Below, piece by piece: positions 6,888-48,740 of a DNA stretch of 58,189 nucleotides. Positions within the stretch are counted from its first letter, which is position 1, and each line of letters opens with the position of its first letter. Both the position numbers and the translations under genes were made by a program. The stretch comes from an uncultured Pseudomonadota bacterium (GTDB taxonomy: Bacteria; Pseudomonadota; Gammaproteobacteria; Methylococcales; Methylomonadaceae): assembly GCA_903848905.1 (NCBI GenBank), contig CAINHP010000018.1, positions 1 through 58,189 on the forward strand. Direction: 5' to 3'. Under the pieces are notes generated by a model. That model saw only the letters and a program-made list of their open reading frames with translations. It did not search any database and was not told the origin of the DNA.

Positions 6888-7954
6888 ATTTTTACACTCC
6901 GTCTTTTTTGTACTGCATTCGCTAAATTTTTAAGCAATGGCAGCGTATCCTCCCATGATAAACAAGCATCTGTAATACTTTGACCATACACCAAAGTCTG
7001 CCCTTCAATAACCGATTGTTGCCCTGCTTTGAGATGACTTTCAATCATAACACCCATTATACGTTTATCACCACTCGCAATTTGCAACGCAACATCTTCA
7101 CCCACTATCAATTGGCGTTGACATTGTTTCAAACTATTTGAATGACTGAAATCAATCATAATATTTGGGCGGAGTTGCGCTTTTTCCATTCCATGCGCTA
7201 CTAGATTCACATTCACTGCATCATAATTGGGCTGTTTATTTCCACCACGCAAAATGATATGAACATCTTCATTACCCGTTGTCGAAAAAATAGCGGAATG
7301 TCCCGATTTTGTCAGAGACAAAAAGTGATGCGGACTCATCGCCGCTCCAATCGCGTCAATGGCAATTTTAATCGTTCCATCGGTTGCATTTTTAAAACCA
7401 ACAGGGCATGACAACCCCGAGGCTAATTCACGATGCACTTGACTTTCAGTCGTTCGCGCACCAATTGCGCCCCAAGCAATTAAATCAGAAATATATTGCG
7501 GCGTTATTAAATCCAAATACTCTGTCGCGGCTGGAATACCATTATTATTCAAATCTAATAATAATTGCCTTGCGATACGCAGCCCTTTATTAATGTTAAA
7601 ACTTGAATCTAAATCAGGATCATTAATTAATCCTTTCCAGCCAACCGTTGTTCGCGGCTTTTCAAAATAAACACGCATGACAATGAGAAGTTCATCACTA
7701 AATTGAGCTATCGCCTGTTTGAGCAACATAGCGTATTCGTGTGCAGCTTTTGTATCATGAATTGAACAAGGACCCACTACAACCACTAGGCGATCATCTC
7801 CACCTGTTAATATATTGTGAATCGCTTGCCTTGTATTAAATATAGTTTGAGCAGCTTGATTGGTGATTGGCATTTCAGTATGTACTTCAACAGGAGCAAT
7901 GACCTGTGTCATACCAGAAATGCGTAAATCATCCGTATTATAATTACTGTGCAA
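6884..7954 (-). CDS. aroG: Class I (AroF/G/H-type) DAHP synthase; feedback specificity cannot be determined from sequence alone
   Basis: 356 aa, collinear with E. coli AroG. Motifs [47 protein letters not shown]. Overlaps thiSG by 4 nt. Confidence 0.93.
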
Positions 7955-7976
7955 AACGGGTTTCTCCTATTTTCAT

Positions 7977-9806
7977 TTATTCTACCGTCACAGATTTAGC
8001 CAAATTACGCGGCTGATCTACATCAGTACCCTTTAAAACAGCAACATGGTATGACAATAATTGCAACGGCAAGGTATAAAGCATCGGAGAGATATGGTTA
8101 TCTACTTTTGGTACTTTAATAATTTGAACATTATCATCGGGTGTTGGCGATAGTGTTTCATCCATAAAAACAATTAATTGCCCACCACGCGCAGACACTT
8201 CTTGCATATTAGACTTCAATTTTTCAAGTAAACTGTTATTTGGCGCAACTGTAATAACCGGCATTTCAGCATCAATTAATGCTAATGGACCATGTTTTAA
8301 TTCGCCCGCGGGATAAGCTTCTGCATGAATATAAGAAATCTCTTTCAATTTCAATGCACCTTCCATTGCAATAGGATAATGTGAGCCGCGTCCTAAAAAT
8401 AAAGCATGGTGTTTTTCTGTAAAGCGCTCAGCTAAAATTTCTATTTCTTTATCCAGCTGCAAAACACTTTCCATTTTACGCGGCAATTTAAACAACTCAT
8501 CCGTGATATGTTGCTCTAAAACTTGATTTAGCTCAAATCGTCTTCCAATAGCAAGTACAAGTAACATAAGCGACACTAGTTGCGTCGTAAACGCTTTTGT
8601 TGACGCCACGCCAATTTCTGGACCTGCACGCGTTAGTAAAACCAAATCAGATTCACGCACTAGCGAACTTTCAGGCACATTACAAATGGCCAATGTGTAT
8701 TTTGCACCTAAACGCTTTGCCTCTTTTAGCGCAGCTAATGTATCGGCAGTTTCACCCGACTGGGAGATAGTCACAACCAACGTATCCGCTGCCAATACAG
8801 GATGGCGATAGCGAAATTCACTTGCAACCTCAATACTACAAGGCACACGAGCTAATTCCTCAAACCAATATCTTGCAACTAATCCTGCATGATAGCTTGT
8901 GCCACAGGCTAAAATTTGAATAGATTTTATTTGATCAAAAATGCGAGCCGCATCAAACCCAAATGCACTATCTTGCAAACGCTGGGCAATAAAACGCCCT
9001 TCTAACGTTTGCGTAATCGCAAAAGGCTGCTCATAAATTTCTTTGAGCATGAAATGCCGATATTCCCCTTTTTCAACAGCATCGGCTTTTAATTGACTTT
9101 CTTTTGTATCTCGACTAACAACATTATTCTTGTCATCATAAATAATTAACGAATCAATTTTAATTTCAGCAACGTCGCCTTCTTCAAGGAATATAAAGCG
9201 TTGCGTCACAGGTAAAAGTGCAGTGACATCTGATGCAACAAAATATTCACCAATTCCCACGCCAATCACTAATGGACTCCCTTTGCGTGCAATGATCAGT
9301 GTATCTGGCTCATCAGCACACATAATGGCTAATGCATACGCACCCTCCAATTTAGGCAATGTTTCCTTTACTGCTTGCAATAAATTATCACTTGTTTGGC
9401 GGGCGTGAAAAACCTCATGAACAATGACTTCAGTATCGGTTTCAGAAGTAAACGCATAATTATTTTTAAGTTGAGTGGCTTTGAGTTGTTCATAATTTTC
9501 AATAATCCCGTTATGAACAACAGCCACATTATTGCAACTAATATGTGGATGAGCGTTTGCGGTACTCGGTTTACCGTGCGTTGCCCAGCGCGTATGTGCA
9601 ATTCCAATATGGCCAGACATTGGATCAGCTTTGAGTGAATCATCGAGTCCTTTCACTTTACCTAAAACTCGTTGACGCATAATCGTATGTTCGTAAATAA
9701 CGGCAAGGCCAGCTGAATCATAACCTCGATATTCTAGACGTTTCAAACCTTCCAATAAAATAGGGATGACATTTCGTTGCGCGATACCTGCGACAATTCC
9801 ACACAT
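7977..9806 (-). CDS. glmS: Glutamine--fructose-6-phosphate aminotransferase
   Basis: 609 aa. N-terminal MCGIV nucleophile, two SIS domains, C-terminal AKSVTVE. Confidence 0.97.
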   Translation of the reverse strand: MCGIVAGIAQRNVIPILLEGLKRLEYRGYDSAGLAVIYEHTIMRQRVLGKVKGLDDSLKADPMSGHIGIAHTRWATHGKPSTANAHPHISCNNVAVVHNGIIENYEQLKATQLKNNYAFTSETDTEVIVHEVFHARQTSDNLLQAVKETLPKLEGAYALAIMCADEPDTLIIARKGSPLVIGVGIGEYFVASDVTALLPVTQRFIFLEEGDVAEIKIDSLIIYDDKNNVVSRDTKESQLKADAVEKGEYRHFMLKEIYEQPFAITQTLEGRFIAQRLQDSAFGFDAARIFDQIKSIQILACGTSYHAGLVARYWFEELARVPCSIEVASEFRYRHPVLAADTLVVTISQSGETADTLAALKEAKRLGAKYTLAICNVPESSLVRESDLVLLTRAGPEIGVASTKAFTTQLVSLMLLVLAIGRRFELNQVLEQHITDELFKLPRKMESVLQLDKEIEILAERFTEKHHALFLGRGSHYPIAMEGALKLKEISYIHAEAYPAGELKHGPLALIDAEMPVITVAPNNSLLEKLKSNMQEVSARGGQLIVFMDETLSPTPDDNVQIIKVPKVDNHISPMLYTLPLQLLSYHVAVLKGTDVDQPRNLAKSVTVE

Positions 9807-20853: not shown

Positions 20854-22721
20854 GCTGCTTTCTTTTTCAAATACACCAACAATAATGAAATAGCCGCAGG
20901 CGTAATTCCTTGCATTCGCGAAGCTTGCCCTAACGTTTCTGGGCGTTGTTTTTGTAATTTCTCAGACACTTCATTTGATAATCCTAACACCGCTTTATAA
21001 TCTAACGTAGTCGGTAATTTCAAATGATCATAACGCAGAGATTTATCTATATCTGCCTGTTGCCGAGTGATATAGCCTTGATATTTCGATTGAATTTCAA
21101 CTTGCTCTGCCACATCATCCGCAAACTCGTGACCATCATCTAAAAACGATAATAAATTTTTAATATCAACTTCTGGTCGACGAAGCAACTCTGTCAGATT
21201 CGCTTCTTTATTTAATGATTTACCCCAAAACTGCTCTACTTTTTGCGCATTTTCAGTATCAGTATGAATCCATTTTTGTTTTAGGTTTTGCTGCAATTTA
21301 TCAATGTTTTCGCGCTTAATTTCAAAAGCCCGCCAACGTTTATCATCCACTAAATTTAATTCACGTCCTTTTTGCGTTAAACGTAAATCCGCATTATCCT
21401 CACGTAAAAGCAAACGATATTCTGCACGACTGGTAAACATTCGATAAGGCTCTTGGGTTCCACGTGTAATTAAATCATCAATCATCACACCAATATACGC
21501 TTCATCTCGACGCGGGCACCACCCTTCAAGACCTTGCGTCAATCGAGCTGCATTTAAACCCGCAATTAAACCTTGCGCAGCAGCTTCTTCATAACCAGTT
21601 GTACCATTAATTTGACCCGCGAAAAATAAACCGTCCAAATGTTTTGACTCAAGTGTCATTTTTAAATCACGAGGATCAAAAAAATCGTATTCAATCGCAT
21701 AACCTGGACGCATAATTTGCGCATTTTCAAATCCTAGCATCGAACGCACAAATTCATATTGCACATCAAAGGGTAAACTTGTTGAGATACCATTTGGATA
21801 AATTTCGTGTGTTGTTAACCCTTCTGGCTCAATAAAAATTTGATGCGAATCGCGATCTGCAAAGCGAACGATTTTATCTTCAATAGAAGGGCAATAGCGT
21901 GGTCCTATACCTTCAATTACGCCAGAGTATAAAGGCGATCTATCAAGACCATTTCGAATAATATCATGGGTTTTTTCATTAGTGCGCGTGATATAACAGG
22001 GTATTTGCTTTGGATGCTGCTCAGCATTGCCTAAAAAAGAAAAAACAGGCACGGGCGTGTCGCCATGCTGTTCTTCTAATACGGAAAAATTAATCGTTCG
22101 CGCGTCAATACGCGGCGGTGTTCCTGTTTTGAGTCGATCAATGCGCAAAGGTAATTCATGTAATCGCGCCGCTAATGCAACAGAAGCAGAGTCACCCGCT
22201 CTCCCACCACTGTAATTTTCAAGGCCAATATGAATTTTGCCCGCCAAAAAAGTTCCCGCTGTCAAAACGACTGATCGCGCCATAAAATCAAGGCCCATCA
22301 AGGTTTTCACGCCAATCACTTGTGATCCCTGAATGATTAAATCAGCAACAGTTTGCTGAAACAACATTAAGTTCGGCTGATTTTCCAATGCGTGGCGAAT
22401 GGCTTGCTTATAAAGCTGACGATCGGCTTGCGCACGGGTTGCTCGAACCGCTGGCCCCTTACTTGCGTTGAGAATACGAAATTGAATACCACCCAAATCA
22501 ATGGCTTGCGCCATAATACCGCCAAGCGCATCAATTTCTTTAACCAAATGCCCTTTGCCAATTCCACCAATTGCAGGGTTGCAACTCATTTGCCCGAGCG
22601 TGTCAATATTTTGAGTCAAAAGCAATGTTTGCGCCCCAGTCCGAGCCGCTGCAAGCGCAGCTTCAGTCCCCGCGTGACCACCACCCACCACAATAACGTC
22701 AAATTCTTTTTTAAATTTCAT
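20850..22721 (-). CDS. mnmG: tRNA uridine 5-carboxymethylaminomethyl modification enzyme MnmG (GidA)
   Basis: 623 aa. FAD motif [12 protein letters not shown]. Confidence 0.97.
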
Positions 22722-23382
22722 TTTGTATTAAAGCCACAAGTTCAGGTAAGGAATTGAGGGTATAGGTTGCATTCAAATCAGCCATCGTATATTGCCCAGC
22801 GTAACCATAAGACACCGCAACCGTTTTAAAATCTGCCTGATTTCCTGCACTAATATCGTTAATTGAATCACCTATCATCCACGTTCTGCTTGGATCTACA
22901 CCTATTTTTTTCGCAGTTTCAAGTAACGGTATTGGACTGGGTTTCATTTCAGAAAACGTATCACCTGATGCAATAAAATCAAAATAAGGGGCAAGTCCCG
23001 CTGTTTCCATCAAAGGATTAGTGAAACGAGCTGTTTTATTTGTGACGCAAGCAAGCTTCAATCCTATTCCTTTTAATTCTTGCAACGTATTTAGTACACC
23101 GTCATATAAACGACTATGTACCCAATCATTCGCAGCGTAATACGTTTTAAATAGCGCAAACGCTGCGTCAAAATCTACCGGATCTGATTCAACGTACCAA
23201 CCTCCAACGAGTGAGCGCTTCACTAGCACATCAGCACCATTACCAATCCACTGTTGAATACTTGCCTGTGAATGCAGAGGTTTATTTAATTTTGACAGTG
23301 CAAAATTGACCGCCTCGACCAAATCAGGGGCAGAATCAATCAACGTACCATCTAAATCAAAAATAATCAGCTCCGGTTTCAT
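22711..23382 (-). CDS. gph: Phosphoglycolate phosphatase (HAD superfamily)
   Basis: 223 aa. HAD motif [12 protein letters not shown] and motif IV GDSINDI. Follows rpe, as in many Gammaproteobacteria. Confidence 0.8.
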
Positions 23383-23387
23383 CGTAA

Positions 23388-24059
23388 TTAAACTGCCTTT
23401 GCAAGCTCTGCACGCATTTCATCAATGACTTTTTTATAGTCAGGTTGACTGAAAATGGCTGATCCCGCTACAAATGTATCTGCACCTGCAGCTTTAATTT
23501 CACGGATATTATCCACTTTAACACCGCCATCAATTTCAAGGCGAATATTACGTCCACTTTCATCAATACGTTTTCTCACTTCACGCAACTTCGTCAATGC
23601 TGAAGGAATAAATGATTGTCCGCCAAATCCTGGATTGACAGACATTAATAAAATTATATCGATTTTATCCATCACATAATCTAAATAATGCAATGGTGTA
23701 CTTGGATTAAAAACTAAACCTGTTTGGCAACCGTGATCTTTAATCAATTGCAACGTGCGATCAACATGAACAGAGGCTTCGGGGTGAAACGTAATAATAC
23801 TTGCACCCGCTTTTGCGAAATCAGGAATAATTCTATCCACAGGCTCGATCATCAAATGCACGTCAATTGGTGCTGTCACGCCATGTTTACGTAGTGCTTC
23901 ACACACCAACGGCCCAATTGTAAGATTTGGCACAAAGTGGTTATCCATCACGTCAAAATGCACAACATCAGCACCCGCTTTTAATACGTTATCCACTTCT
24001 TCGCCTAATTTTGCAAAGTTTGCAGATAAAATCGAAGGTGCAATCCAATTATCATTCAT
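23388..24059 (-). CDS. rpe: Ribulose-phosphate 3-epimerase
   Basis: 223 aa. [30 protein letters not shown]. Confidence 0.96.
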
Positions 24060-38691: not shown

Positions 38692-39114
38692 ATGGAAAAC
38701 TTTACCCCTTATTCCGCGCTGATTGGCGGCTGTCTAATAGGCTTATCAGCCGCGTTATTGTTATTTTTTAATGGCAGAGTTGCTGGCATATCTGGCATAA
38801 TTGTTGACAGTTTTAGTGCGGAAATAGAAAATCGTTACTGGCGAGCATTTTTCTTAATAGGATTAATGTTCAGTGCGGCCATTGTGAATACTTTTTTCCC
38901 CGTTGTACCTGTAACCTATTCTCGTAATATTTTACTGGTCATTGTGTCGGGTATTTTAGTTGGATATGGCACACGCCTTGGTAATGGATGTACAAGTGGA
39001 CATGCCGTTTGTGGTTTAGCGCGATTTTCATTGCGCTCAGCGGTGGCAACAATTACATTCATGTCAACAGCCATATTAACATCGTATATCATGCGACATA
39101 TTTTAGAGTACTAA
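38692..39114 (+). CDS. YeeE/YedE-family half-size membrane protein (sulfur-compound transport component)
   Basis: 140 aa, four TM segments. Conserved GNGCTSGHAVCG motif. Starts 5 nt after the gyrA stop. Confidence 0.75.
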   Translation: MENFTPYSALIGGCLIGLSAALLLFFNGRVAGISGIIVDSFSAEIENRYWRAFFLIGLMFSAAIVNTFFPVVPVTYSRNILLVIVSGILVGYGTRLGNGCTSGHAVCGLARFSLRSAVATITFMSTAILTSYIMRHILEY

Positions 39115-39115
39115 A

Positions 39116-39535
39116 ATGACCAAAAATATAGTAGCTTTAATTTGTGGAATATTATTTGGTCTAGGATTAACCATTTCTCAGATGAGTAATCCTGATAAAG
39201 TCCTTGCTTTTTTGGATATTGCAGGAAACTGGGACTTGAGCTTAATGCTTGTGATGTTTAGCGCCCTAACCACACTAAGTGTGGCGCAATATTTTATTTT
39301 AAAACGCCAAAAACCTGTATGTGATAGTCAATTTTATTTACCTAAAAAAGGTAATATCATTGAAGTTAGACTTATTTTAGGTGCAGTATTTTTTGGTGTA
39401 GGTTGGGGACTTGTCGGGTATTGTCCAGGTTCAGCGCTCGCAGCACTGAGTGATGGCAAACGTGAACCCTTTATTTTTACCATTGCCTTAGGGATAGGCA
39501 TGATGTTATTTAGTCGGTTCCATAATAAAAAATAA
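39116..39535 (+). CDS. YeeE/YedE-family half-size membrane protein, second half
   Basis: 139 aa, four TM segments. GYCPGSAL motif. Starts 1 nt after the previous stop. Confidence 0.7.
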   Translation: MTKNIVALICGILFGLGLTISQMSNPDKVLAFLDIAGNWDLSLMLVMFSALTTLSVAQYFILKRQKPVCDSQFYLPKKGNIIEVRLILGAVFFGVGWGLVGYCPGSALAALSDGKREPFIFTIALGIGMMLFSRFHNKK

Positions 39536-43012: not shown

Positions 43013-43999
43013 TTAAGCTTCTAGAGCAGCTAAACGGTTCGCTAACAATTCTTCCAAAACAACAAGCGCTTTTGCAAAACCATCAATGCCTTCTGCAAGT
43101 TTTTCTGAAGCCATACGATTTTCAGCATGCATATGCTCAAACGTTCCATGATCAACACTAATTTTCTCAATTGACGATGCAGCAGCATTCTCTACTGTCA
43201 ATTTACGTGGCAATTCACCCTGTGTTTTTTGTAATTCATCAAGTAATGAAGGGGCAATTGTCAGTAAATCACTACCTGCTAATTCTGTAATTTCGCCAAC
43301 GTTACGGAAACTTGCGCCCATAACTTCAGTGTGGTAACCGAATTTTTTATAATAATTATAAATTTCAGTAACAGATACAACACCCGGATCTTCAGCAGGC
43401 GTATATGAATCACGACCTGTATCTTTTTTGTACCAATCTAAAATACGACCCACAAAAGGTGAAATTAACGTAATACCATTTTCAGCACACGCAATCGCTT
43501 GATGCAAACCAAACAGTAATGTTAAGTTACAGTGAATACCTTCTTTTTCTAAAACTGCTGCAGCTTGGATACCTTCCCATGTTGCTGCAATTTTAATCAA
43601 TACACGCTTACGATCAATGCCTGCAGCTTCATACTGCGCGATTAACTCACGTCCTTTGGTAACCGTCGCATCGGTATCAAAAGATAAACGTGCGTCTACT
43701 TCTGTTGAAACACGACCAGGAATGATTTCTAAAATTTTCAAACCAAACGAGACGGCTAAACGATCAAACGCTAATGTGACAACATCCGCTGCAGATGCAC
43801 TTGCACCTAAAGTCCCACGCGCCCCTTTCAATGTATCATCAACAATACCTTGATATTGTGGCATTTGAGCAGCTGCTGTGATTAAAGACGGGTTTGTTGT
43901 TGCATCACGCGGCGTAAAAGCTTCAATAGCTTGAATATCACCAGTATCTGCCACAACCACTGTGACTTCTTTCAATTGCTCAAGTAAAGACTTACTCAT
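43013..43999 (-). CDS. tal: Transaldolase (TalB type)
   Basis: 328 aa. DATTNPSL and the Schiff-base Lys context [11 protein letters not shown]. Confidence 0.95.
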
Positions 44000-44039: not shown

Positions 44040-44642
44040 TTAGCGTTGACCTTGCAAATATTTCTCAACACCTGTCACAGCAACACTTTCAACCACAGCG
44101 TTTACGACCGCAATTGCTTCAGCTTTAGCTTGAGAAGCCGTTACAAGAGCTTGTCTAGCTAAATATTTACTGACACTGCTTGTAGTTGTTTCAGGGCGAC
44201 TTTGCAAATAACTTTCAACGCTAGTTGTTTTTTGTTTTGGCGGTGTATGTCTATCTGCTACATTTTTTTTAAGCATATACTTCGCGACACCACTCATAGG
44301 CGTGTTAATCTGACTTGCCAAATAACGTTCAACACCAGATTTTACAACAGGTGCACTATCTTTATTGTTATTTAAATATTTCGCAACACCCGTTAACACG
44401 ACAACAGGCTTATTTCGCTCGTTAATAGCTTGTCGTGCTAAATACTTAGCCACACCACTAGGTTGATTGAGCTCTTGACTTTTCAAGTATTTATCAACTT
44501 TACTGAGCGAAGGTGTTGTTGTTTGGATTTCTAAATAACGACTTACACCAGTCCCATCATGAGCTAAAATAGCATTTCGCGTAGGGGATGACGTGTAAGC
44601 ATTTTCAGAATGTGTACCAAAAAGACTTGAAAAAAAGCCCAT
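44040..44642 (-). CDS. Soluble repeat protein with nine G-V-x-K/R-Y-L-type motifs (uncharacterised)
   Basis: 200 aa with no signal peptide. N-terminal MGFFSSLFG, then motifs centred on Y36, 52, 67, 89, 107, 122, 145, 160 and 195 (for example SGVAKYLARQ, SGVERYLASQ, TGVEKYLQGQ). Linkers are rich in S/T/P/N/K. Starts 2 nt after the upstream stop. Confidence 0.7.
   Translation of the reverse strand: MGFFSSLFGTHSENAYTSSPTRNAILAHDGTGVSRYLEIQTTTPSLSKVDKYLKSQELNQPSGVAKYLARQAINERNKPVVVLTGVAKYLNNNKDSAPVVKSGVERYLASQINTPMSGVAKYMLKKNVADRHTPPKQKTTSVESYLQSRPETTTSSVSKYLARQALVTASQAKAEAIAVVNAVVESVAVTGVEKYLQGQR
44055..44552 (-). repeat. Array of nine degenerate coding repeats ([ST]-[GSK]-V-x-[KRS]-Y-[LM])
   Basis: Read from the translation. 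Spacing is 15-23 residues, except 35 before the last copy. Confidence 0.8.
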
Positions 44643-44644
44643 AA

Positions 44645-45283
44645 CTACCCCCGATCTGTATCGTTTTGAGCAGATGATTTGTGTGCGACATTTTGTCTAG
44701 CAATATATCGAGCCACATTGGTTGGAATCGTGTTGCGTTCTAAATATTTACTTACTCCTGATACTTTAGGAATTCTTGCATTTAAGTAACGTGTCACACC
44801 CGTTTCACCTGAAGCATAAACGCTATGGTGAGATACAGTTGAAGACGTTTTAGAACTTTTAGCAAAAGCAAAGCCACCCACTGCTGCCGCCGCTAACAAC
44901 CCTAAAAACAACAAATTAGAATTACCTTCTTTTTCTACTGTGGCAACAGATACATTTTCGCTCACAGTTGATGCTGATTGAATTGAAGGTGCTGATTTGG
45001 TATGTTTATAGCTTGCATCACTATAAAGCACTTTAGGCTCGAAATTTGTTGCAGGGTATCTTGCATCGAAAGCTTCTTCAACTACTGGTGCAGGAGTTGC
45101 CGCGGGTGCGGATTTTGTTGTTGCTGTGGGAGCAGCCGGTGCAGAAGATTTCACAGAAGCGTCTTGATATAGAACTTTAGGTTCAAAATCTGCTGCTGGG
45201 TATTGATTACCAGCAATTGCGACAAATGAATTGGCCATCAGCAACGTGGTGACAGCAATTTGTAGTAAATTATTTTTTTTCAC
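44645..45283 (-). CDS. Signal-peptide, single-TM protein with a C-terminal tail carrying three G-V-x-K/R-Y-L motifs (uncharacterised)
   Basis: 212 aa with a GTG start and AGGTG 5 nt upstream. Signal peptide MKKNNLLQIAVTTLLMANSFVAIA, two 18-aa repeats, TM LLFLGLLAAAAVGGFAFA followed by KSSK, then TGVTRYLNAR, SGVSKYLERN and NVARYIARQ. Confidence 0.7.
   Translation of the reverse strand: MKKNNLLQIAVTTLLMANSFVAIAGNQYPAADFEPKVLYQDASVKSSAPAAPTATTKSAPAATPAPVVEEAFDARYPATNFEPKVLYSDASYKHTKSAPSIQSASTVSENVSVATVEKEGNSNLLFLGLLAAAAVGGFAFAKSSKTSSTVSHHSVYASGETGVTRYLNARIPKVSGVSKYLERNTIPTNVARYIARQNVAHKSSAQNDTDRG
44702..44803 (-). repeat. Three copies of the G-V-x-K/R-Y-L/I motif in the post-TM tail
   Basis: The motifs centre on Y166, Y180 and Y193 of the 212-aa protein. 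This is the same motif as in the downstream 200-aa protein. Confidence 0.75.
45008..45205 (-). repeat. Two copies of an 18-aa unit (QYPAADFEPKVLYQDASV / RYPATNFEPKVLYSDASY) separated by an Ala/Pro/Thr linker
   Basis: Residues 27-44 and 75-92 of the 212-aa protein. Confidence 0.8.
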
Positions 45284-45364: not shown

Positions 45365-47350
45365 TTAAAGTACCGCTTTAACGTGTTTGACTACATTTTC
45401 AACGGTGAAACCAAAATGCTCAAATAATACGCCACCAGGTGCAGACTCACCAAACGTATCGATACCAACTACTTCACCTTCTAAACCAACATATTTACGC
45501 CAAAAATCAGATACACCTGCTTCAATAGCGACGCGTTTCACGCCAGGTATCAAAACACTGTCTTTATAAGCTTTATCTTGACGATCAAAAACATTAGTTG
45601 AAGGCATTGAAACAACTCGTGCATGAATCCCTTCTGCTTCAAGTGCAGCTTGCGATTTGATCGCTAAAGCAACTTCAGAACCTGTCGCAATTAATACTAC
45701 ATCTGCTTTGCTTGATGCTTCAGCAATAATATAAGCTCCTTTACGCATTGCTGCAATTTGAGCTTCATCGTGTGCAATCGCAGTAATAGCTTGTCGACTT
45801 AACACTAAACTTGTTGGGCCATTATGACGTTCAATAGCACTTACCCAAGCAACAGCTGTCTCAGTTGAATCAGCTGGACGCCAAACATCCATATTTGGAA
45901 TGTAACGTAATCCAGATGTATTTTCGATAGGTTGATGTGTTGGACCGTCTTCGCCTTGACCAATAGAATCATGGGTTAACACGGCAATAGTACGCTGTTT
46001 CATCAATGCAGCCATGCGTAATGCACTTTTTGCATAGTCTGAGAACATATGGAATGTGCCACCAAATGGAATAAATCCACCGTGCAAGGCCATACCATTC
46101 ATAATGGCATACATACCAAATTCACGAACACCATAAGAAATATAGTTACCAGGTTTTTTACCGCTAACGTGTGTAAAACTTGGACAACTAGTCAAATTTG
46201 AACCCGTTAAATCTGCAGAACCACCTAAAAATTCAGGTAATGTTGCCGCTAAACCGGCAATGACTTTTTGTGATGATTGACGAGATGCTAAATTTTCAGC
46301 TTTTTCGTTAAATGCGTGGATTAAATCGCTCGTTACAGTTGCCCAGTTAGATGGCAACTCTCCTGCTACTCGACGTTTAAACTCCGCTGCTAATTCTGGA
46401 TGTGCTACTGCATAAGCATCAAATTTTGCATTCCATGCCGCTTCTACTGAATTGCCTTTTGCTTTTGCATCCCAACCTGCGTAAACATTTTCTGGAATAA
46501 CAAAAGGAGCATGCGTCCAGCCTAACGCTTCACGCGTTAACGCAACTTCTGCATCACCTAATGCCGAGCCGTGACAATCGTGACTGCCACTTTTATTGGG
46601 TGAACCAAAACCAATAATGGTTTTGCAGCAAATCATGGATGGCTTATCTGTTACCGCTTTTGCAGCAGTCACTGCAGCATTTATTGCATCTGCATCGTGA
46701 CCATCTACAGATTGAACATGCCAACCGTAAGCTTCAAAACGTTTTACTGTGTCATCGGTGTACCAGCCATCAATATGGCCATCAATAGAGATGTTGTTGT
46801 CATCCCAAAATGCGACTAATTTACCTAGCCCCCAAGTACCGGCTAATGCACACGCTTCATGAGAAACGCCTTCCATCAAGCAGCCATCACCTAAAAATAC
46901 ATATGTATGATGATCAACAATGTCATGGCCTGGACGGTTGAATTGATCAGCCAATAATTTCTCTGCCATGGCAAAACCAACACCGTTGGTAAGACCTTGA
47001 CCTAATGGACCTGTTGTAGTTTCGATACCTGGCGCATAGCTGTATTCAGGATGTCCTGCACATTTGGAATGCAATTGACGAAACGACTGCAATTCTTTCA
47101 TTGGCAAGTCGTAACCAGATAAGTGGAGAAGTGAGTAAATTAGCATTGAACCATGACCATTTGATAATACAAAACGATCGCGATCTGCCCAATTTGGATT
47201 TGTTGGATTATGTTTTAAATGGTCGTTCCACAACACTTCAGCGATGTCTGCCATACCCATTGGCGCACCGGGGTGTCCTGAATTGGCTTTTTGAACTGCA
47301 TCCATGCTTAAAGCGCGTATGGCATTCGCTAATTCTCTACGCGAAGTCAT
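45365..47350 (-). CDS. tkt: Transketolase
   Basis: 661 aa. SGHPG, the ThDP motif [13 protein letters not shown], and [16 protein letters not shown]. Confidence 0.97.
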
Positions 47351-47444: not shown

Positions 47445-47480
47445 GTTAAAGTGAACAATTCTACAATTATTCACTTTAAC
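47445..47480 (-). other. 11-bp hairpin immediately after the phi stop
   Basis: gttaaagtgaa / ttcactttaac with a 14-nt loop. On the minus strand it is followed by tgttttggtt. Confidence 0.4.
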
Positions 47481-47489
47481 ATTAATTAC

Positions 47490-48023
47490 TTATTCTAAAT
47501 TAGCGTGTCTTGAACGCATAATCTCTTCAGGAATGCCTTTCTCATGGATAATATGAGAAATAGTAGATTCCAAAAAGAGCAATGTTGACAATTCAAATAC
47601 AGTCCCCATTGGCATTCCAACCACTTTACCATACAAATCAGAACGACCAATTTGGAACAAACCGTCTGCCATATCACCAATAGTTGATTTTGATTGTGCT
47701 GAAATCAACATGATTTTAGCGCCAATTTTTTTCGCACTTTTAGTGAACGCAACAAGCTGTTCAGTTTCACCTGATCCTGAGATGACAATGAGTAAATCGC
47801 CTTGTTGAATGCTCGGGGTAACGATTTCACCGACAACATTAACGTTGTAACCACCATGCACCAACCGCATTGCAAAGAAATTGCCGACAAGTTTTGAACG
47901 ACCTGCGCCCGCAATGAAAATGCGAGCAGCTTCATCGAGCATAGCTGTCAGTTTTTCATCGTATGATTCCTCAGTTGCTTCAAGGATGCCTGTGATTTTT
48001 TCTAAGATTAGCTCTTGGTGCAT
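47490..48023 (-). CDS. phi: 6-phospho-3-hexuloisomerase (SIS domain)
   Basis: 177 aa. GAGRS and SGSGET SIS motifs. Lies directly downstream of hps. Confidence 0.88.
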   Translation of the reverse strand: MHQELILEKITGILEATEESYDEKLTAMLDEAARIFIAGAGRSKLVGNFFAMRLVHGGYNVNVVGEIVTPSIQQGDLLIVISGSGETEQLVAFTKSAKKIGAKIMLISAQSKSTIGDMADGLFQIGRSDLYGKVVGMPMGTVFELSTLLFLESTISHIIHEKGIPEEIMRSRHANLE

Positions 48024-48035
48024 AAGGATTCCTAA

Positions 48036-48677
48036 TTAAACTGCGTCTACTAATTCACGAATTTCACGTGCTGCTTCTGCTGGAGATGCTGCACCGTAAA
48101 TTGCTGCACCAACCACGATGATGCTAGCACCAGCGCGAACTACGTCTTGAACGGTTTTAGTATTGATACCGCCAGCAACTGAAATACGAACGTTTAATCC
48201 TAAAGAAGCAATCAAGCTTAAATCTGCAAACGGTGTGTGACCTGCTGCTTGAGCGTCTAAACCAGTGTGAACACCGATAATTTGCGCACCAGCATCAACA
48301 GTTGCGCGTGCGCAAGCTGCTTTATCATCAACATTAATTAAATCAATTTGCGCTTCAGCTGCGTGTGCATTAGCTGCTTTGATAACACCTTTGCAAGTTG
48401 CTAAACCTGAAACACCTAATACTGTACAAATATCCGCACCAGCTGCATAAAAAGGTGTTGCTTCATATTCGCCAGCATCCATTGTTTTCAAATCAACTAA
48501 CAATAATTTGTCAGGGAATTCAGCACGCAATGCTCTAACTAAGTTAACACCGTTGTGTTTAATGCAAGGTGTGCCGATTTCAAAAATATCAACAAAAGGC
48601 GCAACTTGTTTCGCTAATGAAACTGTTGCATCGAAATCTAATGAATCTAATGCCATTTGAATTAATGGTCTTGCCAT
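48036..48677 (-). CDS. hps: 3-hexulose-6-phosphate synthase
   Basis: The start MARPLIQMALDSLD has GGAG 8 nt upstream. The track's GTG at 48686 abuts the SD. OMP-decarboxylase-fold motifs DIFEIGTP, DLKTMDAG and GVHTG. Confidence 0.9.
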   Translation of the reverse strand: MARPLIQMALDSLDFDATVSLAKQVAPFVDIFEIGTPCIKHNGVNLVRALRAEFPDKLLLVDLKTMDAGEYEATPFYAAGADICTVLGVSGLATCKGVIKAANAHAAEAQIDLINVDDKAACARATVDAGAQIIGVHTGLDAQAAGHTPFADLSLIASLGLNVRISVAGGINTKTVQDVVRAGASIIVVGAAIYGAASPAEAAREIRELVDAV

Positions 48678-48740
48678 GATGTACACTCCAAAAAAGTTAT
48701 AGTTATAGTTAATTGTTACGCTAATTTATGCGGGGTTAAC

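Follow-up and report, generated by a model that had tools for sequence, protein, structure and literature searches.

Repeat proteins with a shared short motif encoded in the ribulose monophosphate gene cluster of gammaproteobacterial methanotrophs, and their possible role as a membrane-tethered scaffold

The DNA analyzed here (referred to as the window) is contig CAINHP010000018.1 of GenBank assembly GCA_903848905.1, a stretch of 58,189 nucleotides (nt) from an uncultured Pseudomonadota bacterium of the family Methylomonadaceae, and the subject of this report is a pair of open reading frames (ORFs), designated X and Y, that lie within its ribulose monophosphate (RuMP) pathway gene cluster. The gene order on the minus strand is hps-phi-tkt-X-Y-tal, with the RuMP-specific genes hps (48036-48686; NCBIfam TIGR03128, RuMP_HxlA, 244 bits, cut-off 200) and phi (47490-48023; NCBIfam TIGR03127, RuMP_HxlB, 193 bits, cut-off 160) at the head. 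The transketolase gene tkt (45365-47350; TIGR00232, 961 bits) lies directly upstream of X (44645-45283; GTG start, 212 amino acids (aa)), which is followed by Y (44040-44642; ATG start, 200 aa), and the transaldolase gene tal (43013-43999; 607 bits) lies directly downstream of Y. The stop codon of X (TAG) and the ATG of Y are separated by 2 nt, and purine runs resembling Shine-Dalgarno sequences precede both starts. The window has a GC content of 39.8 %, and the GC content at third codon positions (GC3) of X and Y equals that of the neighboring genes. An earlier reading made from the DNA letters alone (the sequence-only reading) had described two ORFs 2 nt apart interrupting an otherwise enzymatic string of genes, and both the coordinates and the four enzyme families were verified. 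All coordinates given below for X and Y are on the minus strand of the window.

Protein X begins with a signal-peptide-like segment (residues 1-24; 45212-45283) that starts with MKKNN, has a hydrophobic core and ends in A-I-A; residue A24 is invariant in the alignment of X homologues (alignment A2), and AlphaFold2 places a helix at residues 5-17. Two units of 18 aa follow, QYPAADFEPKVLYQDASV (residues 27-44; 45152-45205) and RYPATNFEPKVLYSDASY (residues 75-92; 45008-45061), which are identical at 13 of the 18 positions, share the consensus YPAxDFxPKVLYxD (the repeat unit is also written in short as YPAADFEPKVLY) and are embedded in linkers rich in Ala, Pro, Thr and Ser. Residues Y28, P29, A30, F33, P35 and D41 of unit 1 are invariant among 21 X homologues, as is P77 of unit 2, and Y76, A78, P83, K84, V85, D89 and Y92 of unit 2 are conserved in at least 90 % of homologues. 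A transmembrane (TM) helix, LLFLGLLAAAAVGGFAFA (residues 124-141; 44861-44914), was identified by hydropathy, coincides with an AlphaFold2 helix at residues 125-135, and is followed by KSSK, which would lie on the cytoplasmic side. The remaining tail of 71 residues contains a block of three motifs, TGVTRYL (161-167), SGVSKYL (175-181) and TNVARYI (188-194), located at 44702-44803 from the sequence and alignment A2. Invariant residues of the tail are G162, V163, Y166, G176, V177, Y180, V190 and Y193, plus the C-terminal G212, and the AlphaFold2 helices of the tail begin at residues 162, 176 and 189.

The AlphaFold2 model of X (mean predicted local distance difference test score (pLDDT) 55.0, predicted template modeling score (pTM) 0.15) contains helices only for the signal peptide, the TM segment and the three motifs, and its periplasmic part is unstructured. 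The layout of X proposed in the sequence-only reading, with a signal peptide, two 18-aa units, a TM helix, KSSK and three motifs, was therefore borne out by sequence, alignment and structure prediction alike. Sequence inspection and hydropathy, on which the assigned topology and signal-peptide cleavage rest, indicate that X is a type-I bitopic membrane protein. The number of periplasmic units varies among X homologues, some of which have three (P0197, P0369), and one locus (L057 13901-14278) encodes a 125-aa mini-X with one periplasmic unit and just two cytoplasmic motifs. Across X proteins the tail carries 2-5 motifs. From the conserved YPAxDFxPKV units it seems that X may also engage in another, independent interaction across the membrane from its tail.

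Protein Y opens with MGFFSSLFG (44616-44642), a hydrophobic and Phe-rich segment that is conserved in close orthologues and is a possible membrane- or partner-binding element. The sequence-only reading had taken this segment to be amphipathic. Its helical hydrophobic moment (0.16-0.23) is not above that of shuffled sequences and AlphaFold2 gives no helix there, so an amphipathic membrane-targeting helix of the MinD/FtsA type is unproven. The rest of Y is an array of nine motif copies found by motif scan (44055-44552), the cores of which lie at 44532-44552, 44484-44504, 44439-44459, 44373-44393, 44319-44339, 44274-44294, 44205-44225, 44160-44180 and 44055-44075, with the motif V at residues 33, 49, 64, 86, 104, 119, 142, 157 and 192. 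The start-to-start spacings are 16, 15, 22, 18, 15, 23, 15 and 35 residues; all nine copies counted in the sequence-only reading were found, and the spacing of 15-23 residues given for them holds for seven of the eight intervals and fails for the last. The residue before V is G in six copies and K or S in three; S replaces K/R in one copy, and M replaces L in one. Neither X nor Y contains Trp.

No globular fold was predicted for Y by AlphaFold2 (pLDDT 65.6, pTM 0.19). The predicted helices (residues 33-40, 48-58, 63-76, 85-92, 103-112, 118-132, 141-148, 156-185 and 193-197) all start at, or at most one residue from, a motif V. The low pTM, the restriction of helices to the motifs and the fast evolution of the linkers agree with the disordered linkers that had been proposed.

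The motif is specific to the two proteins. The pattern V-x-[KRS]-Y-[LIM] occurs nine times in Y and three times in X and is absent from the remaining 40 long ORF segments of the window (17.7 k residues in total), and 20,000 shuffles of each protein gave a mean of 0.03 copies for Y and 0.015 for X, with a maximum of two. A refined logo, [ST]-G-V-x-[KR]-Y-L-x-x-[QK] with the core [ST]-G-V-x-[KR]-Y-L, was obtained from 2146 instances in Y proteins, 399 in X proteins and 59 and 507 in two further protein architectures, W and Z (described below), and is the same in all four. It includes S or T at position -2 in 95-100 % and G at position -1 in 65-84 % of instances, although neither position was part of the search pattern. 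Examples of motif peptides are SGVAKYLARQAINE and TGVEKYLQGQR.

Conservation is concentrated in the motif. Every invariant column in an alignment of 22 Y sequences with 35-95 % identity (alignment A1) falls within the motifs, the linkers being free to vary, and longer Y orthologues gain entire additional motif units, so that the copy number ranges from 8 to more than 15. Spacings in the Y family peak at 15-16, 20 and 22-23 residues, and, depending on the lineage, the net charge of Y lies between -13 and +14 per 100 aa with the motif unchanged. Rates of nonsynonymous (dN) and synonymous (dS) substitution were calculated by the Nei-Gojobori method against four orthologous loci. Whole-gene dN/dS was 0.12-0.18 for Y, 0.17-0.28 for X and 0.02-0.12 for the flanking enzymes. 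The dN of motif codons in X and Y was 0.000-0.124 compared with 0.030-0.343 elsewhere in these genes, at similar dS, and was several-fold below that of the spacers in three of the four comparisons; dN/dS of the Y motifs was about 0.02-0.13, comparable to that of the flanking enzymes. The dN/dS values and the difference in dN between motifs and linkers show that X and Y are genuine protein-coding genes in which selection is concentrated on the motif. An origin of the array as a DNA tandem repeat was rejected, as no array was found at the DNA level, and the repeats are therefore old and have been kept at the protein level.

The predicted helices begin at the motif V, and for this reason [ST]-G is best read as capping the N-terminus of the helix, V, Y and L making up a single small face. 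This hydrophobic face consists of three residues only and the motif helices are polar overall (mean Eisenberg hydrophobicity -0.3 to 0.1, hydrophobic moment 0.3-0.45); together with the near invariance of V and Y, this polarity fits protein recognition better than lipid binding. Both X and Y have at least three short conserved motifs separated by poorly conserved, disordered spacers, and valency varies among orthologues while the motif remains constant, as expected of sticker-and-spacer proteins. This anatomy gives good support to a multivalent tether or scaffold, one that would recruit a putative partner to the membrane.

Gene neighborhoods were surveyed in one scan of 185,579 species genomes, which gave 49 loci, and in eight further metagenome or metagenome-assembled genome (MAG) loci with X, Y or W. 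All 49 genome loci have the order hps-phi-tkt-X-Y-tal as far as the contig extends. They include Methylobacter tundripaludum SV96, Methyloglobulus morosus KoM1, Crenothrix polyspora, Methyloprofundus, the methanotrophic symbiont of Bathymodiolus puteoserpentis and many lake MAGs, one of which (L001) is 99 % identical to the window. Each genome locus contains exactly two plus-strand ORFs with at least three motifs, namely X (3-4 motifs) and Y (8-15), and the pair is kept in synteny down to about 31 % identity to the window proteins. The motif genes also lie inside the RuMP cluster in all eight further loci, so that the linkage to RuMP genes raised in the sequence-only reading was found at every one of the 57 loci surveyed.

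Among the eight further loci are clusters ordered hps-phi-tkt-X-Y-tal-fba and X-W-tal-fba, one with W ordered hps-phi-tkt-(frameshifted X)-W-tal, and three in which Y has moved beside hps. These last three are a fusion-bearing cluster, hps::phi fusion-Y-hps-phi-tkt-X (L051 6563-10802), one in which two hps copies flank Y, hps-Y-hps-phi-tkt-miniX-tal-fba (L057 8215-11204), and a full tandem duplication of hps-phi-tkt, hps-phi-tkt-Y-hps-phi-tkt-X-tal-fba (L059 994-9144). X is always directly behind tkt, and a relocated Y lands beside hps. In locus L050, the 950-nt gap between tkt and W (7052-8000) contains fragments of X in three frames (YPATDFQPKVVYQD, YPAANFQPEVLF and VTGVEKYLKD), which represent either a decayed X or frameshift errors, the contig being labelled as having 3x coverage. 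Two types of Tkt were observed at the same position, one in loci L024-L043 and the other in loci L001-L023 and L044-L049, with about 66-68 % or 81-99 % identity to the window Tkt. This suggests that tkt was swapped for a paralogue in a Crenothrix/Methyloglobulus-like group, with Hps, Tal and the motif conserved. The ORF segments of all 64 loci, 322,000 residues together, contain no other ORF with the motif, except for antisense read-throughs of Y. Long antisense ORFs across X and Y (L047 8528-9043, L023 7778-8206 and L042 8267-8551, all on the minus strand, with 'KYLATPV' repeats) are not genes; the repeat itself gives rise to them, since the TGVxKYL codons read xKYLxTPV in reverse complement.

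Searches of 5.8 billion clustered proteins gave 165 homologues of Y and 117 of X, all annotated as hypothetical, and the Y profile gave 343 matches among 1.84 billion representative proteins, about 40 of which were read individually. Homologues are accordingly few, and the named sources of X and Y are Methylococcales, Methylococcaceae and Methyloprofundus MAGs, that is, gammaproteobacterial methanotrophs, or else unclassified Pseudomonadota or Gammaproteobacteria MAGs. Y is 385-406 aa long in Methylobacter and Methyloglobulus, and Y-like proteins reach 631 aa, some of them strongly acidic. Two eukaryotic matches, P0296 (2902 aa) and P0334 (1466 aa), are unrelated repeat proteins (with TGVKKMM or MTVEEYLKS) that show chance similarity of short repeats.

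All matches of X, Y, W and Z in Pfam and NCBIfam scans were below cut-offs (E >= 0.0003), and profile searches of the PDB with alignments A1, A2 and A3 gave nothing below E = 0.07, in agreement with the sequence-only reading, in which the motif was not recognized as any named domain. The sub-threshold matches to U1snRNP70_N, LPXTG anchor and Phd antitoxin families are ascribed to chance, and the PF12220 labels that some homologues carry from precomputed annotation reflect this same spurious match. No enzyme fused to the motif (a 'Rosetta stone' protein) was found among 150 matches listed (about 40 read) or in any ORF of the 64 loci. Literature on methanotroph hexulose enzymes, condensates, scaffolds, disorder, proteomics, cryo-electron tomography and phase separation was searched and contained no description of these proteins. 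Judging from these searches, X, Y, W and Z appear to be previously undescribed protein families that lack annotation and any known domain.

Proteins of the W architecture are 110-140 aa long, with an N-terminal TM helix (MEENYL...FKK), 4-5 motifs and the C-terminal end SGVEKYLNNRG (examples are L053 875-1285 and L050 8001-8378), and in some lineages it is W that is encoded between X and tal, where Y would otherwise be. The sequence-only reading had cast X as the membrane anchor and Y as its soluble counterpart. The first part stands, but Y may not be simply soluble, since its hydrophobic N-terminus is conserved and the TM form W replaces it in some lineages. Z proteins have an N-terminus like MAKNLLEQL, 4-7 TGVxKYLAKQ motifs, a long linker rich in Ala, Pro, Glu and Lys, and a C-terminal Cys3His module of about 55 residues (QCQAxTxKGTxCxR...TINKQKYxFxxCSQH...FxP) that matches no known family. 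The Z family has 481 members at E <= 0.001, with named sources that include Methylobacter, Methylomicrobium, Methylosarcina, Methylomagnum ishizawai, a methanotrophic symbiont of Gigantopelta, and Methylococcaceae and unclassified Gammaproteobacteria MAGs (examples are L055 403-1137, L056 1246-2088, L061 8001-8945, L062 8001-8711 and L064 8001-8777). Z shows that the motif is part of a wider, lineage-level system.

The remainder of the window is ordinary chromosome, with gidAB, parAB, the atp operon, glmSU, gyrA, ftsH, hda, glnS and dnaE. A hairpin resembling a terminator or attenuator (47445-47480, minus strand; a match to the consensus only, with a 16-pair stem and a T-rich tail) lies in the gap between phi and tkt, and may lower expression of tkt-X-Y-tal relative to hps-phi. 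Neither fba nor rpiA occurs after tal in the window; many related loci have tal and then fba. A ribulose-phosphate 3-epimerase gene paired with a HAD phosphatase gene is located at 22711-24059 (minus strand), about 20 kb from the RuMP cluster. On the plus strand, directly downstream of gyrA, two neighboring ORFs for polytopic membrane proteins of about 140 aa (38692-39535) resemble, by eye only, a split YeeE/YedE-type sulfur transporter.

Taken together, X, Y, W and Z form a disordered and partly membrane-anchored set of proteins with a common helix-forming motif and variable valency, and three of the four architectures are locked into the RuMP cluster. The reading of X, Y and W favored here, with a rough probability of 0.45, is that they are a methanotroph-restricted disordered sticker scaffold with its membrane tethers, most likely for a RuMP enzyme. 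The data above establish the anatomy, the pattern of conservation, the synteny, the restriction to certain taxa and the lack of any known domain, and from them we infer the membrane topology, the binding of a protein by the motif and the identity of that protein. The mature N-terminus of X, with its two YPAxDFxPKVLYxD units, would face the periplasm or the lumen of intracytoplasmic membranes, and its C-terminal tail would present 3-4 motifs to the cytoplasm. The motifs of Y, numbering 8 to more than 15, would be displayed along short and flexible spacers, and W, which stands in for Y in some lineages, would carry a similar array on its N-terminal TM helix. Each motif helix would act as a sticker that docks into one site of an oligomeric cytoplasmic partner, with Y linking many partner molecules by avidity and X and W holding the assembly at the membrane on its cytoplasmic face, the place of formaldehyde arrival.

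A RuMP enzyme is the most likely partner, with Hps/Phi placed first and Tkt or Tal second, because the genes of X, Y and W are always in the RuMP cluster and a moved Y adjoins hps. Hps/Phi are favored since Y relocates beside hps and Hps captures formaldehyde, and Tkt is the alternative since X always follows tkt and Tkt is also expected in a sulfur oxidizer with a Calvin cycle. Hps, Phi, Tkt and Tal are net acidic in all lineages checked, and Y is mostly basic (median +5 per 100 aa). Ferenci, Strom and Quayle are said to have reported in 1974 that the hexulose phosphate synthase of Methylococcus capsulatus is membrane-associated; later papers citing theirs do not restate this, and it is not used as evidence here.

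Several observations weigh against this reading. Z is a stand-alone gene in neighborhoods that are not conserved and contain no RuMP genes nearby, and one Z protein, on a contig with a GC content of 56 % (50-58 %), is labelled as coming from Thiolapillus sp. (Chromatiales), a sulfur oxidizer; if this label is correct, the receptor of the motif is not necessarily RuMP-specific. The scaffold proposed for RuMP enzymes in the sequence-only reading is partly supported: it is backed by architecture, conservation and RuMP linkage, and is weakened by the occurrence of the same motif in Z outside RuMP clusters. One lineage has a strongly acidic Y, like the presumed client enzymes, and charge is therefore neither a conserved determinant nor a general driver of binding. 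Membership of the operon may reflect mere co-expression during growth on one-carbon (C1) compounds, and no transcript or protein evidence for X or Y, or for cytological clusters of RuMP enzymes, was found in the literature. The AlphaFold2 runs used family alignments, and their confidence was low (pLDDT 55-66).

The closest competitor, although itself somewhat unlikely, retains the shared-motif tether and gives it a receptor other than a RuMP enzyme, namely a component of the intracytoplasmic membrane system, such as particulate methane monooxygenase (pMMO), its cytoplasmic face or another membrane complex, or a general cell component. X, Y and W would then organize or stack membranes or set the distance between them, or would use the YPAxDFxPKV units of X to connect the oxidation of methanol and methane in the periplasm with something in the cytoplasm, and their location in the RuMP operon would merely secure co-expression with C1 metabolism. 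Such a receptor would suit the TM anchors of X and W, the conserved hydrophobic or helical N-termini of Y and Z, which are putative membrane binders, and the conserved periplasmic motifs that X has of its own. It would also suit the absence of RuMP linkage in Z, the sulfur-oxidizer label of one Z protein, and the fact that the named X and Y sources are methanotrophs or unclassified MAGs, with no RuMP methylotroph lacking intracytoplasmic membranes named among the matches. It is difficult to reconcile with the retention of X, Y or W in the RuMP cluster at 57 of 57 loci through several independent rearrangements, in which Y moves beside hps, and no pmo, mxa or xox gene occurs in the neighborhoods listed. 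The motif helix is too polar to bind lipid directly. A slim chance is given to the idea that the motif helices self-associate or bind lipid and so cover the membrane with a client-free coat or gel. Short helices present in many identical copies and joined by flexible spacers could behave in this way, and the oligomerizing stickers of PYCO1 (PMC10288592) are a precedent, but AlphaFold2 shows no packing of helix on helix (pTM 0.19), the helices are polar with a hydrophobic face of three residues, and the RuMP location would be left unexplained.

Sequestration in the manner of CP12, in which X and Y would, in certain conditions, bind and inactivate or buffer enzymes of the sugar-phosphate cycle such as Tkt or Tal, would account for disordered proteins being encoded among these enzymes and for the constant position of X behind tkt, and a partner common to the RuMP and Calvin cycles, for example Tkt, would be in keeping with the presence of Z in a possible Calvin-cycle autotroph. 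Sequestration is nevertheless quite improbable: redox-sensitive Cys pairs are absent from X and Y, neither protein matches the CP12 family, their high and variable multivalency and membrane anchors would be superfluous for simple inhibition, and the motif is unchanged in the several lineages that have the Tkt type of about 67 % identity. That X and Y are spurious or decaying low-complexity ORFs with no function has next to no probability. The lack of a known domain, annotation or expression data would be expected of such ORFs, but they would not be kept as a syntenic pair down to about 31 % identity with dN/dS of 0.12-0.28, motifs constrained to the level of enzymes, GC3 equal to that of their neighbors and Shine-Dalgarno-like sequences before both starts, and the conservation data effectively refute this explanation.

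Methylococcales methanotrophs are a major biological methane sink and platform organisms for methane bioconversion, and formaldehyde is in methanotrophs both the central carbon intermediate and a toxin. How formaldehyde passes without leakage from periplasmic oxidation to cytoplasmic fixation is, to our knowledge, an old question still without an answer, and tethers and linkers embedded in the RuMP operon would give it a molecular handle. A more specific form of the scaffold reading, and a rather doubtful one, is a membrane-tethered, pyrenoid-like assembly of Hps/Phi that Y cross-links and X and W pin to intracytoplasmic membranes, with the periplasmic units of X contacting the methanol- or methane-oxidizing machinery. 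If true, this would be a trans-membrane metabolon that traps toxic formaldehyde at its entry to the cytoplasm, and the first known sticker-and-spacer organizer for C1 assimilation other than CO2 fixation. The motif supplies a short peptide for direct use as bait, the system predicts a localization phenotype, and it could possibly be transplanted into synthetic methylotrophs for better formaldehyde capture. Even with a non-RuMP partner, the proteins represent a new bacterial short-linear-motif system with four architectures and hundreds of members.

Among known systems, the closest match in overall design is that of the Chlamydomonas pyrenoid, in which, as Meyer et al. are said to have described in 2020, the membrane proteins RBMP1, RBMP2 and SAGA1 carry the same Rubisco-binding motif as EPYC1. 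Both systems have a disordered linker of short helical stickers together with membrane proteins that bear the same sticker, with variable copy number and spacers, and both are tied, here putatively, to the enzyme that first fixes carbon in an assimilation cycle. The motif is found on a linker without a TM segment (Y) and on integral membrane proteins (X and W) encoded by adjacent genes. There is no sequence relation to EPYC1 (structure preprint 10.1101/2020.08.16.252809) and no Rubisco-binding motif: the EPYC1 motif is [DN]W[RK]xx[LIVA] with a spacing of about 60 residues, whereas the motif here is [ST]GVx[KR]YL with a spacing of about 15-23 residues, in bacteria, in a RuMP rather than a Rubisco context and with a putative partner. 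The diatom pyrenoid linker PYCO1 likewise has short conserved stickers in the disordered spacers of a repeat protein, and its stickers are oligomerizing (PMC10288592). PYCO1 is not related in sequence, and its stickers bind one another as well as the small subunit of Rubisco, whereas AlphaFold2 gave no sign of self-association here.

CP12 is a small, disordered, monovalent Calvin-cycle regulator with redox-active Cys pairs that forms supramolecular complexes. X and Y resemble it as small disordered proteins linked to enzymes of a sugar-phosphate cycle, and differ in having many repeats and membrane anchors, no Cys pairs and no family match. The encapsulation peptides of bacterial microcompartments are present in a single copy on the cargo enzyme itself; they too are short helices on poorly conserved linkers that target proteins to an assembly, but in X and Y the helices are multiplied on dedicated carriers and no shell genes are present. 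The scaffolds CsoS2 of the alpha-carboxysome and CcmM of the beta-carboxysome, reportedly described by Oltrogge et al. in 2020 and Wang et al. in 2019, are multivalent repeat proteins that bridge cargo to a boundary layer; CsoS2 is largely disordered, and, as here, the repeat protein is encoded in the operon of its pathway. X and Y have no Pfam match to CsoS2 or to SSUL/RbcS, and neither CsoS2 repeats nor gamma carbonic anhydrase with SSUL domains nor a cso or ccm operon was found; no shell or Rubisco genes lie nearby, and the neighbors are hps, phi, tkt and tal. The boundary in carboxysomes is a protein shell, whereas here a lipid membrane would take that role, with a TM helix making the contact. 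By homology, X and Y fall outside every one of these systems, and by architecture they appear to be multivalent scaffold proteins with a motif shared between a linker and its membrane tethers.

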